This document shows positions 1,474-6,026 of a stretch of DNA of 64,000 bases, piece after piece. Where the stretch lies: positions 1 through 64,000 of the IMG/VR virus record IMGVR_UViG_3300042458_002038; one strand, given 5' to 3'. Origin of the DNA: a virus. Position numbers and translations under genes: made by a program. How positions within the stretch are numbered: position 1 is the stretch's first letter; every line of letters starts with the position of its first letter. The notes below the pieces were generated by a model, which ran no database searches, was not told where the DNA came from, and worked only from the letters and a program-made list of their open reading frames with translations.

Positions 1474-1556
1474 ATTATACCACAAAAAATCGGCTTTGTA
1501 AAGGAAAAAATGCATGTTTTTGCATTTATTTTCAGCCGTTGAAAATCAACAGGTTA
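1474..1556 (-). promoter_or_regulatory. early promoter module with upstream ATGCAT box and IHF-like site
   Basis: TTTACA-N17-TATAAT (1474-1502); AATCAACAGGTTA at 1544-1556 fits WATCAANNNNTTR. Confidence 0.75.
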
Positions 1557-1782
1557 CGGATTTTGCGGAAAAATGGCCCAGAATGGCATCAACTCCAGCA
1601 TATCTGGCGCCATCAGAGCTTAGGAGAAGCGGAACAGTCTTTATGCCGTTGTCGCTAAAAAACTGCTGATCATCTTCCATATTGATCACTCCCACGGTGA
1701 TGCTATTCTCTGAGAGATACTTCTTAATCATTGCGCATGGTCCGCAAAATTCGCTGCTTGCTAGTGTGTATGTTTGTTTCAT
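1546..1782 (-). CDS. glutaredoxin/NrdH-like redoxin
   Basis: CGPC active site, TVP motif, 78 aa. Confidence 0.85.
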   Translation of the reverse strand: MKQTYTLASSEFCGPCAMIKKYLSENSITVGVINMEDDQQFFSDNGIKTVPLLLSSDGARYAGVDAILGHFSAKSVTC

Positions 1783-1803
1783 ATAGTTTATATATTAGAA
1801 AAG

Positions 1804-1892
1804 CGGATGCCGGAGGTATTGCGCCCCAAGGTCAGGATCACTGCCTCGATCCGATTAGCAATCGGTCCTAGTTCTTAACTAGATCAACATCC
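1804..1892 (-). tRNA. non-canonical (8/4, tRNA-Sec-like fold) tRNA with GCT (Ser) anticodon
   Basis: 8-bp acceptor GGATGTTG/CGGCATCC, G discriminator, 6-bp D-stem CTAGTT/AACTAG, CCGA-TTGCTAA-TCGG, long V-arm, 4-bp T-stem GGGG/CCTC; no encoded CCA. Confidence 0.6.
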
Positions 1893-2656
1893 ATATAATG
1901 AGATTTGTATAATTTTGATTTAAATGGAACGCCTTTAATGGGAAGATACTCTAAAATATATTCTACGAATAATCTGCGAATCTTATATTCGGGTATCAGA
2001 ATATTTCTAGCAAAATCACATAATGATGAATAACTGCCATTATTAAATTGAATCCAATATGATTTTGCTAATAACTGATTTGTTTCTTTTCTGCTTTTTA
2101 AGGTTTCTCTCCTTAGCTCACGAGCAATTTGTTTTTTATTTTGACGCGGCCTTAAATTTTTTGCTCGTGATGGGCGAGGTTTTCGTTTAAAAACTATCCA
2201 TTTGTTGCGGCCTTTAATCCATCCTTCGGGAATCGGCAATGTTTTATCAATGCATCTACTTTCCTTGAGATCAATATTTGAAATCCAATGCTTTCCAAAT
2301 TGCGAATTTCGTTCGCCTTTTTGAGTAATCTTGTTATTCCGTGAAATATATTTAGCACATTCTTTGCGAGCCCATTCATACATCCGACCAGATTTAATAC
2401 ATGGGCGATCTGAATTTTTAGAAGGTTTCATTTGCATTGCCCAAATAGCATGAGCATTCTCAGCGCATCTATTAAATCTCGCAAGAAGTAAATGGGCTAT
2501 GTAATGTTCACGACCGGTTAATGCAACCTTATTTGTCTTATCATCAGATCCTCCTAGTGATGAAGGAATTATATGATGATTTTCTTTATATCCGGAAAGT
2601 ATAGGATTTGTTTTCCTATACTGAATAAGTTGATTGTAAATTCGTTCATAGTCCAT
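1868..2656 (-). CDS. HNH homing endonuclease (Mob-like)
   Basis: ENHHIIPSSLGGSDD..N...LT.REHYIAHLLL HNH motif; AT-rich; late promoter TATAAATA at 2665-2672. Confidence 0.88.
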   Translation of the reverse strand: MDYERIYNQLIQYRKTNPILSGYKENHHIIPSSLGGSDDKTNKVALTGREHYIAHLLLARFNRCAENAHAIWAMQMKPSKNSDRPCIKSGRMYEWARKECAKYISRNNKITQKGERNSQFGKHWISNIDLKESRCIDKTLPIPEGWIKGRNKWIVFKRKPRPSRAKNLRPRQNKKQIARELRRETLKSRKETNQLLAKSYWIQFNNGSYSSLCDFARNILIPEYKIRRLFVEYILEYLPIKGVPFKSKLYKSHYMDVDLVKN

Positions 2657-2678
2657 TATAAAACTATTTATACAAATT

Positions 2679-2758
2679 ACGAACCTGTGAACCGGAGCAC
2701 CCTATTAAAGGTGACTTCTGTTTAGCAAACAGATACATTGCCACTCTGTCACATCTCC
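2679..2758 (-). pseudogene. 3'-truncated tRNA-Ser(GCT)
   Basis: GGAGATG 5' acceptor strand, TCTGT-TTGCTAA-ACAGA arm, long V-arm, GGTTCG, then no 3' T-stem or acceptor strand before the endonuclease cassette. Confidence 0.7.
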
Positions 2759-2764
2759 GTAAAT

Positions 2765-2840
2765 TGGTCTCCTACCAAGGAATCGAACCTTGCTCATCTT
2801 AGCCCCAAACTAAGCGCCTACCCAGCCTTGCCCGTAGAAG
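2765..2840 (-). tRNA. tRNA-Pro(TGG)
   Basis: CTTCTAC/GTAGGAG acceptor, CTTAG-TTTGGGG-CTAAG arm, CCA end; weak D-arm. Confidence 0.8.
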
Positions 2841-2933
2841 ATATTAAAATTTAGAGGAAGCCCGTAACCTCTGTATGGCTTTTTATGAACAGCTTTAACA
2901 AGCATACAACCACGGCAATCCGAAGACAGGAAC

Positions 2934-3713
2934 TTAATCCACACCGTGAGCATCGCTACTGTTCCTGAGTGCAGTTGCAAAATTAATCATTTTTGAAATA
3001 CTATACCATGATAATTGAGTTTTATCTAAAATGAAAACTTTAATTGAATTTTGTATTTCAACCAACTCAATTTTTGTTATATCTGAAAACCCCATAGCTG
3101 GATTTACATTATTAATTAAAAAATCATTTTTTGGATCAAGATATACATCATATTCAGGTAGATAAAAATCAGGAGTATATTTTCTGTTTTTTCCATTAGG
3201 ATCAGTATATTCAAATGATTTTGGTTTTTCCCATATGATATTATTTTCATCTAATGAAATTGCTACCTTTAATTCGTAGCCTGAGCCTAATTTAACATCT
3301 TTATATTCAATACGGTTATTGATAAATTTACCTCCAATTCCACGACGTTTTGCGTGATCGGATTGAGATTTTCTCATTTCATCAGTCCAAATGCATTTAC
3401 CGCATTTTTCACTTAATTTATTACGTGTTTCTTCGGAAATTATTGGCTTAGGTAAACCTAAACGTTTAGCTTTAGTATGTTGATTTTGTGGCCCTAAACC
3501 AACTATGGGTTGTCTTACATAACCTTGTAAGCAAGCATTATAATGAGTATTATAATTTGAAACATTAAATTCCTTTCCGCAGTTTTCACACTCCTTTTTT
3601 GGCATATGTTTTTGAATTATTATTCCATCAATACAACGTGTAATATGTTTGTTAAAATTGCTTAATGAAATGTGTTTCTTACATTGTGGGCATTCTTTTG
3701 TAATACGTTGCAT
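2934..3713 (-). CDS. putative homing endonuclease, zinc fingers plus PD-(D/E)XK (TnsA-N-like) domain
   Basis: Two CxxC..H motifs, NUMOD3-like segment, YTPDFYLPEYDVYLDPK motif; late promoter at 3719-3726. Confidence 0.8.
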   Translation of the reverse strand: MQRITKECPQCKKHISLSNFNKHITRCIDGIIIQKHMPKKECENCGKEFNVSNYNTHYNACLQGYVRQPIVGLGPQNQHTKAKRLGLPKPIISEETRNKLSEKCGKCIWTDEMRKSQSDHAKRRGIGGKFINNRIEYKDVKLGSGYELKVAISLDENNIIWEKPKSFEYTDPNGKNRKYTPDFYLPEYDVYLDPKNDFLINNVNPAMGFSDITKIELVEIQNSIKVFILDKTQLSWYSISKMINFATALRNSSDAHGVD

Positions 3714-3728
3714 AATTGTATTTATACA

Positions 3729-3760
3729 AAAGCACCCGCTTTATCACTAAGCTACATCTT
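3729..3760 (-). pseudogene. tRNA 5'-half remnant
   Basis: GATGTA-GCTT-AGTGATA-AAGC-G-GGTGC resembles a D-arm and anticodon stem start, broken at the endonuclease promoter. Confidence 0.4.
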
Positions 3761-3774
3761 TTTTTATAAAGTTT

Positions 3775-3867
3775 TGGTACTAGTGGTGGGGGTCGAACCC
3801 ACATACCGGTCTAGCCGGATTTTACGCCCTTATAAAGAACGGCCTTTACCATTCAGGTCACACTAGC
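3775..3867 (-). tRNA. tRNA with TAT anticodon (Ile) and long variable arm
   Basis: GCTAGTG/CACTAGT-A-CCA, CGTTC-TTTATAA-GGGCG, V-arm CCGG-CTAGA-CCGG, GGTTCGAC T-loop. Confidence 0.82.
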
Positions 3868-3871
3868 ATTA

Positions 3872-3903
3872 TCCAATCCGCTCTTCCGATGAGCTACAGG
3901 AGG
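3872..3903 (-). pseudogene. tRNA 5'-half remnant
   Basis: CCTCCTG-TA-GCTC-ATCGGAA-GAGC-G, no matching 3' half. Confidence 0.45.
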
Positions 3904-4369: not shown

Positions 4370-4711
4370 TTAAATTTGATCTCTTACATCACTTTCTCCG
4401 CCTGCGGTCCAATCCCACATAGTGCCAAGATGACGAACAGATGCGCCTTCCTCGGTGTGTTTCCACTTGTCTAACCATTTTTGCAACTTAGGGCTGTCAC
4501 CTTTGAATGTTACATACGCGGCTTTATCAAAGCGGTTATACCGACTGCTAACAAATTTAAAGCCGTTGGCTGTACCAAGCTTTTTTGCTTTGGCAATAAT
4601 ACCTTTCTCTTCATGCGCATAGCCAAGAAAAGGAACAGTCAATGTAACCGGTTTTCCTTCTGTTAGCATAGTACGATATGCATCGGCTGCAGTTGAGATA
4701 TTATTGTTCAT
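4370..4711 (-). CDS. putative internal head protein (paralog family)
   Basis: N-terminal TAADAYRTMLTE leader; domain shared with the 4716 and 5460 ORFs. Confidence 0.6.
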   Translation of the reverse strand: MNNNISTAADAYRTMLTEGKPVTLTVPFLGYAHEEKGIIAKAKKLGTANGFKFVSSRYNRFDKAAYVTFKGDSPKLQKWLDKWKHTEEGASVRHLGTMWDWTAGGESDVRDQI

Positions 4712-4715
4712 ATTT

Positions 4716-5453
4716 TTATACTTTTGCAGCAACAGTTAGTGCCTTTGCAATCTCTTTAAATTCGCTCTCGGATGCAGAGATATAAGCATTTCCACTATAG
4801 CTTTTCCATACCGACCAAGGGACTGTACCATCGGATGTATTAAGATTACCAGGATTCAGCTGCATGAATACTTTTTTACCACTAGAAATAAAAGTAAGGC
4901 AACCATCTCCAACATAAATTACGTCATTAACTGGTTGTCCGTTTACATTAGCCGCCTTTGAATGGTCAACTTTTAGACCGCCGTCAATCATTGGCTTGCC
5001 AACTCGTTTTGCGTTTGCAGCTAAAAATTTAGCGTAGTTTTGCTTCTTATCTTTTGAATGCGAAAACTCATCTTCTTCAGCTTCATTTAAAGCCGATTCA
5101 GTTGCATCTACGCTTTCGCTATAATCATTAACAATTTCTTCTTCGCTGTCGTCAGTGCGCATCCACTTGTTGACCCATTTAGCTAACTTGCTGCTGTCAC
5201 CTTTGATTGTGACATATACTGCTTCATCATAGCGGTCATATTCTCCACCATGAACGGTGAAGCCATTCTTAGAGCCAATCTCTTTAGCTTGAGCAAGAAC
5301 TTTTTTTTCATTTGTGCCAGGAAATGGAATACTTAGAGTAACCATCTTTCCTTCGTTTAGCGAAACGTCTTCAAGTGATGAGTATGTTTGTTCGGCTAAC
5401 ATTGCACGGTATGCGTCAGCTGCTGTTGGTGGGATTGAAATGTAGGTGTTCAT
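4716..5453 (-). CDS. putative internal head protein (paralog family)
   Basis: ISIPPTAADAYRAMLAEQ leader, LNE sites. Confidence 0.6.
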   Translation of the reverse strand: MNTYISIPPTAADAYRAMLAEQTYSSLEDVSLNEGKMVTLSIPFPGTNEKKVLAQAKEIGSKNGFTVHGGEYDRYDEAVYVTIKGDSSKLAKWVNKWMRTDDSEEEIVNDYSESVDATESALNEAEEDEFSHSKDKKQNYAKFLAANAKRVGKPMIDGGLKVDHSKAANVNGQPVNDVIYVGDGCLTFISSGKKVFMQLNPGNLNTSDGTVPWSVWKSYSGNAYISASESEFKEIAKALTVAAKV

Positions 5454-5459
5454 AAATTA

Positions 5460-6026
5460 TTAGTTACTCTTTACGCTCATACCCTTCATAATTTCTTTGA
5501 TTTGTTCAAAGTTTGCAAGGCGCGCAAGAACATGTACAATGTAATCAACTTTATTGTCAGGAATTTTTTTAATGACTGCCTTCAATTGCTTAAGCTTAAC
5601 TTTAGGAGGAGTTGATGCAAACCCATAATCAGGTGCTTCGATTTCTTCAGCTATAGAGGAATCATATGATTCGCTATAGTCATTTAAAATTTCTTCGTCA
5701 CTGTCGTCAGTACGCATCCACATATTAACAAATTTAGCTAACTTGCTAAGATCGCCTTTAAGTTCAATATCAACAGTTTTGTCATAACGGTTGTATTCAC
5801 CACCAAGAACAGTAAAGCCATGAGTCTTACCGAGAGTTTTAGCCTGAGCCATAATTTTATCTTCGTTTGACCCAGGAAATGGAACAGTCAATGTGACTAT
5901 CTTTGCTTCATCAAGTTGAGATACATTTTCAGCTGCAGCTTCTTCACGTGAAGCGTATGTTTGTTCGGCTAACATTGCACGATACGCATCAGCTGCTGTT
6001 GGTGGGATTGAGATGTGGTTATTCAT
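5460..6026 (-). CDS. putative internal head protein (paralog family)
   Basis: Same leader; late promoter at 6038-6045. Confidence 0.6.
   Translation of the reverse strand: MNNHISIPPTAADAYRAMLAEQTYASREEAAAENVSQLDEAKIVTLTVPFPGSNEDKIMAQAKTLGKTHGFTVLGGEYNRYDKTVDIELKGDLSKLAKFVNMWMRTDDSDEEILNDYSESYDSSIAEEIEAPDYGFASTPPKVKLKQLKAVIKKIPDNKVDYIVHVLARLANFEQIKEIMKGMSVKSN

Follow-up and report, generated by a model that had tools for sequence, protein, structure and literature searches.

The question raised by this locus is what a tRNA gene of unusual shape is doing at the very end of an endonuclease gene. The original prediction, made from the letters of the DNA, took positions 1804 to 1892 for a tRNA-Sec-shaped tRNA of the 8/4 type with a serine anticodon, overlapping the end of an HNH gene, and proposed that it might be a nuclease-resistant or decoy tRNA-Ser of a kind that standard scanners may miss. 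Is this element, here called B, a real tRNA gene, to which class does it belong, and does it work? And why is it found behind a nuclease?

The window analysed, meaning the whole stretch of DNA, is the first 64 kb of the 73.7-kb IMG/VR virus record IMGVR_UViG_3300042458_002038, which is estimated to be 41% complete. Its gp41-type helicase is 57-61% identical to the helicases of cyanomyoviruses and TATAAATA boxes lie upstream of several of its genes, on which grounds the phage is classed, from its sequence, as a T4-like environmental myovirus. The genes at the left end of the window are all encoded on the minus strand, and positions within B are numbered as 1893 minus the window coordinate.

Anatomy of B

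The features of B and of its surroundings are as follows.

1804-1892, minus strand: B, an (8/4) tRNA-Ser(GCU)-type gene, from sequence reading, fold, covariation and the covariance model R2
1885-1892 with 1805-1812, minus strand: acceptor strands of B, 8 bp (positions 1-8 with 81-88), two G-U pairs included
1868-1882, minus strand: D arm of B, a perfect 6-bp stem with the 3-nt loop AAG
1857-1859, minus strand: anticodon GCU of B, from sequence reading
1828-1850, minus strand: variable region of B, 22-23 nt between anticodon stem and T stem, about 5 bp possible
1813-1827, minus strand: T arm of B, a 4-bp stem GGGG/CCUC with the loop CGCAATA at 1817-1823
1804, minus strand: discriminator G (G73) of B, from sequence reading
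1868-2656, minus strand: Mob-type HNH homing endonuclease ORF, 262 aa, from a phrog_655 match, similarity to T4 MobD and the core motif
2657-2687, minus strand: cassette leader, with a second GTTCG box and a T4-type late-promoter box TATAAATA at 2665-2672
2688-2758, minus strand: A, a canonical 7/5 tRNA-Ser(GCU) broken off in the T-loop, from Rfam and an alignment with locus L042
2765-2840, minus strand: tRNA-Pro(UGG), part of the replaced block, called by ARAGORN
1797-3874, minus strand: block non-homologous to the close relatives L002-L004, from blastn
1546-1782, minus strand: glutaredoxin-like ORF, the conserved right-hand neighbour of the tRNA-Ser slot, from Pfam PF00462 (E 1e-4)

Everything that had been listed for B is present on the minus strand: the 8-bp acceptor, the 6-bp D-stem, the V-arm, the CGCAATA loop, G73 and the GCT anticodon. 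Two nucleotides link the acceptor to the D arm. The anticodon loop is canonical (7 nt, with U33, GCU and A37) and is carried on four Watson-Crick pairs, which an A-A mismatch and a G-U pair could lengthen to six. All of the stems are intact, at 8, 6, 4, 5 and 4 bp; position 8 is a paired G, whereas canonical tRNA has U8, and no CCA is encoded. Measured against canonical tRNA, B is without G18-G19 (its D-loop being AAG) and without U54-U55-C56 (its T-loop being CGCAATA), and its branch is not 7/5. It does have the 12-bp branch of an (8/4) tRNA, made up of the 8-bp acceptor and the 4-bp T stem, together with the GCU anticodon, long V arm and G73 of a serine tRNA, the last two of which serve SerRS as identity elements. 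The overlap with the HNH gene is likewise as described, in that the last 8 codons and the stop lie within the first 25 nt of B, with the TAG at 1868-1870 forming the end of the 3' strand of the D stem.

Standard scanners do indeed pass the gene over. It is left uncalled by ARAGORN, even at 80% of threshold and in the mitochondrial modes, and the Rfam models for tRNA (RF00005) and tRNA-Sec (RF01852) give no match to it at E<=10, even with the search confined to 401 nt. Folded as a single sequence, B retains the 8-bp acceptor and the D arm with a z of -2.5 against shuffles, a score that by itself would be weak evidence for a real element. From the scanner results and the single-sequence fold alone, B would have to be called doubtful.

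Relatives of B and the (8/4) tRNA-Ser class

The case for B comes from its relatives. A covariance model made from B alone (R1) was used to find these in other loci, the key full-length matches being L050:1942-2025 (43 bits) and L017:1986-2072 (32 bits), and a second model (R2) was built from four relatives in other phage contigs, with B excluded. R2 scores B at 63.9 bits (E ~1e-17), within the range of 41-69 bits given by family members outside the training set, and B is its sole strong match, whether the window or the full 73.7-kb record is searched. Because the relatives were chosen by way of a model made from B, the independence of this test is incomplete; the score is far beyond what that selection could explain.

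Covariation in related phages, the absence of which had been set as the finding that would count against the tRNA, was looked for and found. In the five-sequence alignment 94.9% of stem cells pair; the corresponding figures are 72% for shuffles and 34-53% for slid controls. Compensatory changes on both sides are seen in 16 of the 27 pairs. Five of the six D-stem pairs are among those with compensatory change, while the eighth acceptor pair covaries among the members as G-C, A-U and U-A and the base before the T stem stays unpaired. RNAalifold, given the alignment, returns the 8/4 cloverleaf unprompted. The prediction of an 8/4 tRNA of tRNA-Sec shape with a serine anticodon is supported.

The 8/4 plan is found at L017:1986-2072 (UGA), L050:1942-2025 (GCU), L046:2711-2798, L048, L036:3819-3903 and L045:1905-1989. 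For instance, the copies in L050 and L017 combine an acceptor of 8 bp with a D stem of 6 bp, whose 4-nt loop contains GG, and with a long V arm; their T stem is GGGG/CCUC as in B, and both carry G73 and CCA. The L050 copy is not called by ARAGORN. Three of the matches, recovered with R2 (L036:3819-3903, L045:1905-1989 and L046:2711-2798), are serine tRNAs that lie away from endonucleases, which makes the 8/4 shape a lineage trait of the serine tRNAs in these phages and not something produced by the nuclease.

Against this common plan B has departures of its own, and they fall on the positions of the class that are functionally most conserved; its anticodon stem, with no more than 4 Watson-Crick pairs and an A-A mismatch, also counts among them. 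The D-loops of the 8/4 relatives are of 3-4 nt and contain GG, as against AAG in B; loops of 3 nt also occur in L036, L045 and L098, but contain GG there. The T-loops of the relatives are UUCRAxx or AUCGAxA, as against CGCAATA, which is unique to B. CCA is encoded in all seven other tRNA genes of the window and in all of the 8/4 relatives inspected, but not in B. GenBank phages were searched at the DNA level with the B region, for near and for distant matches, and none was found; a search of IMG/VR with an exact 25-mer of its anticodon arm was likewise blank. In these GenBank phage and IMG/VR searches no orthologue with the T-loop of B was found, on account of which its oddities cannot be shown to be selected.

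B resembles bacterial tRNA-Sec (selC, RF01852) in several respects, both combining an acceptor of 8 bp, a D stem of 6 bp closed by a tiny loop, a long V arm and G73, and both being able to form an anticodon stem of 6 bp. B has GCU in place of the UCA anticodon and a 4-bp in place of a 5-bp T stem, and these, with the lack of an RF01852 match at E<=10, rule out that it is itself a tRNA-Sec. The covariance search against selC that had been proposed as a check was thus blank for B, and it was its 8/4 relatives in L050 and L046 that reached 39-42 bits on the tRNA-Sec model, under the 47-bit threshold.

A class to hold B already exists. Mukai et al. 2017 (PMC5389517) defined allo-tRNAs by a branch of the 8/4 or 9/3 type, a D arm like that of tRNA-Sec, a long V arm and G73 or U73, and reported (8/4) tRNA-Ser from the tRNA gene clusters of uncultured phages. 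B shares with these the 8/4 12-bp branch, the long D stem with its tiny loop, the long V arm, G73, a serine anticodon and the phage tRNA-cluster setting. It differs in having a 3-nt D-loop without GG, where the class has a tetraloop, a T-loop without U54/U55 and no encoded CCA; the class was found by means of the tRNA-Sec model, which the relatives of B match below threshold and B does not. By its sequence, then, B is a real element, as distinct from a chance fold, and a member of the already known (8/4) tRNA-Ser class.

The endonuclease, the stub and the second copy

The ORF that ends inside B matches the 'homing endonuclease' family phrog_655 (E 3.6e-34) and aligns with T4 MobD over 90% of its length at 28% identity (E 1e-13); a Pfam search with it found no match. 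The HH...N...H core is conserved, with H27, H28, N42, H51 and H55 invariant in the alignment with its homologues (alignment A1). Relatives recovered in a protein-based metagenome scan are at most 64% identical, and the identical protein is recorded on 5 contigs. Past about residue 245 the tail has no counterpart in the homologues of A1, and the ORF runs on to its first in-frame stop, which happens to be located in the D stem of B; since the tail lacks a counterpart, the overlap is best understood as read-through into the tRNA, not as a constraint of the protein upon the RNA. With T4 MobA-E (MobD, MobE; PMC2790892, PMC2988022, PMC3468402) the ORF shares the N-terminal core ExHHI.P...GG...N...H. 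The T4 mob genes, however, adjoin nrd and other protein-coding genes, whereas the subfamily in the window belongs to tRNA clusters and ends inside tRNA genes. Ahead of the ORF the leader follows the pattern RGTTCR...TTTGTATAAATA, 5-8 nt, ATG, which recurs upstream of the HNH ORF in most related loci.

What lies before the leader is most of a second serine tRNA with the same anticodon. A retains the 5' acceptor strand, a canonical D arm, the anticodon arm, the V arm and the 5' strand of the T stem, and is without the 3' strands of T stem and acceptor. The Rfam tRNA model matches it over 2706-2758 (30.1 bits), and it follows the intact tRNA-Ser(gct) of L042 nearly base for base as far as T-loop position 57, after which it diverges into the leader. 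No partner 3' acceptor strand was found anywhere in the 3.1 kb searched, and A is therefore a stub. Its anticodon-loop 7-mer is identical to that of B and to that of the canonical tRNA-Ser of relatives, and it is the only GCU tRNA of the record besides B. A split tRNA or an HNH-bearing intron, with A and the 3' part of B as exons, was considered and rejected, the 5' strand of A being unpaired with the 3' strand of B and having no complement in the 3.1 kb.

The stub belongs to a larger replacement. Compared with L002 by blastn, the window is 98% identical up to 3875, inside the 5' part of a tRNA-Ile, and 89% identical from 1796 onward. The counterpart of the intervening stretch in L002-L004 takes up 335 bp and is free of endonuclease genes; its tRNAs are tRNA-Ile(UAU), tRNA-Pro(UGG) and a canonical tRNA-Ser(GCU) of 90 nt. 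From the flanking identity, 1797-3874 is read as a replaced block that keeps the same order of anticodons and adds two endonuclease genes. Its tRNA-Pro(UGG) adjoins A upstream, A beginning six nt after it, is unrelated in sequence to the tRNA-Pro(UGG) of the equivalent slot in L002 and has no match to the Rfam tRNA model at E<=10. The discriminator of B is 7 nt from the point where homology with L002 resumes. Next to it, the glutaredoxin-like protein is 88% identical in L002-L004, where the canonical tRNA-Ser(gct) ends 24 nt ahead of its start codon. Gene order thus places B exactly in the syntenic tRNA-Ser(GCU) slot.

Other elements of this part of the window deserve a record of their own. 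The second endonuclease ORF (2934-3713, minus strand, 259 aa) is of a different family (phrog_15137, E 1.8e-15) with an N-terminal zinc-finger-like match, and the sequence upstream of it (3714-3774, minus strand) carries TATAAATA and the apparent 5' half of another tRNA broken near its anticodon loop. A tRNA of 93 nt, with anticodon UAU, lies at 3775-3867 (minus strand); its branch is of the ordinary 7/5 type, its variable arm is long and its discriminator is A73. It follows a 29-nt 5' stub (3875-3903, minus strand) of the short tRNA-Ile(UAU) that is intact in L002-L004. It has a close homologue with compensatory V-arm changes at L007:1487-1582 and a distant one at L025:329-418, and, being an AUA-reading tRNA of class II shape, it raises the question of which amino acid it carries. 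The short tRNA-Ile(UAU) of L002 (3624-3698) has the non-canonical T-loop GUCAGCA and is nonetheless called by ARAGORN. Further along, 4370-6026 (minus strand) holds three tandem paralogous ORFs of 120, 245 and 188 aa that share the N-terminal motif ...PPTAADAYR.ML.E... and a repeated central segment, their sole family match being a weak one to DUF2922.

How general is the arrangement? A first survey covered 22 HNH loci of IMG/VR and JGI metagenomes; at 13 of them the HNH ORF ends within the tRNA gene that follows, with overlaps of 4-67 nt, and most of the others end no more than 70 nt away. An HNH-tRNA overlap of 10 nt is also annotated in two GenBank phages, Rhizobium phage LG08 and Vibrio phage SRILMA. 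The overlap to which attention had first been drawn is consequently a habit of this endonuclease family and nothing special to B. When the flanks are read, the same order recurs, namely a tRNA stub at the T-loop box GGTTCRA, then RGTTCR...TTTGTATAAATA, then the ORF and then a complete tRNA with the anticodon of the stub. This is seen for Gly, Val, Leu, Ser, Gln, Lys, Thr, Met and Trp tRNAs, and in most loci the stub ends at the T-loop box. L017 and L050 share this layout, each with a tRNA-Ser stub (UGA and GCU, respectively) upstream of the HNH ORF and an 8/4 tRNA-Ser of the same anticodon downstream.

A wider automated survey took in 89 distinct ORFs, 37 of which have an ARAGORN tRNA starting between -75 and +40 nt from the stop. 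At 22 of these 37 loci the same anticodon is present in a hairpin loop within 150 nt upstream of the HNH start codon, where 2000 trials with permuted anticodons gave 3.3 loci on average and 11 at most. The figure of 22 depends on ARAGORN and a simple hairpin rule and is an undercount, the matches visible by eye in L016 and L033 having been scored as misses.

The same set of loci speaks to the idea of a nuclease-resistant tRNA. Among ARAGORN-called tRNAs, those next to the endonuclease keep TTCRA in 30 of 37 cases and those elsewhere in 236 of 278 (p = 0.63), a comparison that is biased against the idea because ARAGORN misses the oddest copies. Recoding of the T-loop as a general rule of immunity is unsupported by these counts. 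It may confer immunity on B, on the L017 and L048 copies and on a number of Met, Trp and Asp copies with an A54 T-loop in common. The earlier claim keeps a narrow measure of support, in that the gene of B, as DNA, may be immune to the endonuclease encoded beside it.

Three further observations were made on the cassettes. Nearly all junctions (L005-L046; window 2657-2692) contain tandem boxes, GTTCRA of the stub and RGTTCR of the leader, before TTTGTATAAATA, a pattern that suggests microhomology capture or the relic of an earlier target. The substitute tRNAs are often of another class than the stub upstream (L013:3146-3231, L029:3154-3239, L007:3191-3277, L016:3197-3273), with Val(UAC) and Thr(UGU) copies of 86-87 nt that have long variable arms and a 77-nt, short-V tRNA(UAA) downstream of a class II tRNA-Leu(UAA) stub. 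Finally, L014:3333-3419 and L027 (about 1790-1860) have tRNA-like genes directly 3' of their HNH ORFs that ARAGORN misses; these are a Tyr(GUA) tRNA, whose acceptor has 8 bp, and a GGU element that matches the tRNA-Thr(GGU) stub upstream of it.

Among the closest described systems is SegB of T4 (PMC2330249; PMC13096335), which is like the window HNH protein a free-standing homing endonuclease among phage tRNA genes, promotes the inheritance of its tRNA region by intronless homing and exemplifies a widespread association with tRNA genes. It differs in belonging to the GIY-YIG family and in having a tRNA intergenic region as its listed target, and in the text consulted neither a pair of truncated and substitute isoacceptors nor an ORF stop inside a tRNA is described for it. 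The main text of PMC5389517 likewise makes no link between the (8/4) tRNAs and a homing endonuclease or a truncated canonical isoacceptor. No description of the layout of stub, HNH gene and substitute tRNA was found in the full-text literature searched, and to the extent of that search the context of B looks new; its 8/4 shape is not.

Origin and function of B

The reading that we favour, by a modest degree, is that B is a real (8/4) tRNA-Ser(GCU) gene and the full-length substitute copy belonging to a Mob-type HNH homing cassette, in which the order on the minus strand is the 7/5 tRNA-Ser(GCU) stub A, the late promoter, the HNH ORF and B. We infer a course of events in which the endonuclease attacks a sensitive tRNA gene in a co-infecting phage, cutting in the conserved T-loop box or close to it. 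Indirect support for site-specific cutting of an endonuclease-free allele, with gene conversion to follow, comes from the lack of the ORF in L002-L004 and from the ending of stubs at the T-loop box in most loci. The right-hand broken end would then invade the donor downstream of the donor tRNA, and repair synthesis would copy the substitute tRNA, the HNH ORF and the promoter into the break. Joining of the left-hand end would make use of GTTCR microhomology, and this would account for the tandem GTTCRA/RGTTCR boxes present at almost all junctions. In this process the 5' two-thirds of the old tRNA would remain as a dead stub while the incoming tRNA with the same anticodon took over its task, and the stub would supply homology right up to the cut for later rounds of homing. 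Copies strongly unlike the stub would be hard to cut again and hard to delete through recombination between repeats, and this fits the altered state of the downstream copies, such as 8/4 against 7/5 for Ser, long-V Val and Thr, and short-V Leu. As the whole Ile-Pro-Ser block differs from that of the relatives, the cassette in the window may have brought B or may have been inserted beside a resident B.

As to expression, B would be co-transcribed with the HNH mRNA and freed by RNase P and 3' trimming, whereupon the host would add CCA and the host SerRS would charge it with serine through the long V arm and G73, allowing it to read AGY codons. Because RNase P cleavage would remove the stop codon of the ORF, any one transcript could yield the tRNA or a translatable nuclease mRNA, never both. 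Codon usage suggests a need for such a decoder. AGY codons make up 467 of the 773 serine codons (60%) in 33 long ORFs, which counts for function, as does the fact that the only other GCU tRNA is a stub. Taking everything together, we put the chances that B is functional at about even.

The strongest competing explanation is that B is a decaying pseudogene, a once working (8/4) tRNA-Ser that arrived with or beside the endonuclease, while the phage uses the tRNA-Ser(GCU) of its host. This is possible, if on the unlikely side. It would account for three independent departures seen in B alone, the loss of U54/U55, the D-loop without GG and the missing CCA, and for the failure of either Rfam model to match B at E<=10 while L050 and L046 reach 39-42 bits on the tRNA-Sec model. 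The recombination junction 7 nt past the discriminator may moreover have taken the CCA away. Yet neutral decay should hit paired positions, which are roughly 60% of the total, with about the same frequency as the loops, and the stems of B are intact; the anticodon loop has kept U33 and A37; and the 63.9 bits on a model that excludes B fall inside the 41-69 bits of the other non-training members. tRNA genes in which CCA is not encoded also undergo normal processing in many hosts, as do some tRNAs of T4.

Improbable, in our judgement, is a role for B as a non-decoding, tRNA-like 3' element of the HNH transcript, in which cleavage by RNase P removes the stop and so throttles a toxic nuclease, or else sets the 3' end of the mRNA. 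The stop of the ORF does lie inside the tRNA in the window and in many relatives, and it is the acceptor and D arms, the parts relevant to RNase P, that are perfect in B, its elbow loops being degenerate. At almost every other locus, however, the overlapped tRNA looks fully functional, so that the overlap needs no special regulatory explanation, and the match of anticodon with the upstream stub points to decoding as the selected trait.

The decoy role first suggested for B, as a resistant substitute against a host anticodon nuclease or another tRNA-cleaving defence, is very improbable and finds nothing in the data to support it. Phage tRNAs can counter such defences, and in T6 homing endonucleases are tied to this (PMC13096335). 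The anticodon loop of B, however, is the same 7-mer as in A and in the canonical tRNA-Ser of relatives, on account of which it has no obvious means of escaping an anticodon nuclease; no defence system is known here. Last, a chance cloverleaf in the coding 3' end and the intergenic spacer, for which a z of only -2.5 and the lack of any scanner call might speak, is ruled out to near certainty by the R2 score (E 1e-17 from an independent model) and the covariation of the stems, and agrees no better with the position of B at the syntenic tRNA-Ser slot or with an overlapping ORF tail that homologous proteins lack.

As a tRNA, B adds to the published phage (8/4) tRNA-Ser class a member in which the usual elbow nucleotides are missing, and shows once more that standard scanners under-count the tRNAs of phages. 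The part most worth attention is the recurrent architecture of a nuclease with its substitute tRNA. If the layout does represent homing with a built-in substitute, then it explains both how a selfish nuclease can target an essential and conserved T-loop box at no cost to its carrier and why stubs and odd-shaped tRNAs are so common in phage clusters, and it offers natural, probably orthogonal 8/4 tRNA scaffolds together with T-loop-specific nucleases for testing. More tentatively, and with the balance still somewhat against it, the Mob-type HNH endonucleases of T4-like environmental phages may be tRNA-gene replacers, each cassette consisting of a late promoter, the nuclease ORF and a complete tRNA joined to the 3' end of that ORF. 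They would break the resident gene at its T-loop box, leave the 5' two-thirds behind as a stub and install an isoacceptor different enough in structure to escape re-cutting and recombination with the stub. Were this true, selfish nucleases would be a main driver of the non-canonical tRNA shapes in phage clusters, among them 8/4 Ser, long-V-arm Val, Thr and Ile(UAU) and short-V-arm Leu(UAA), and B would be one of their products, with a recoded T-loop.
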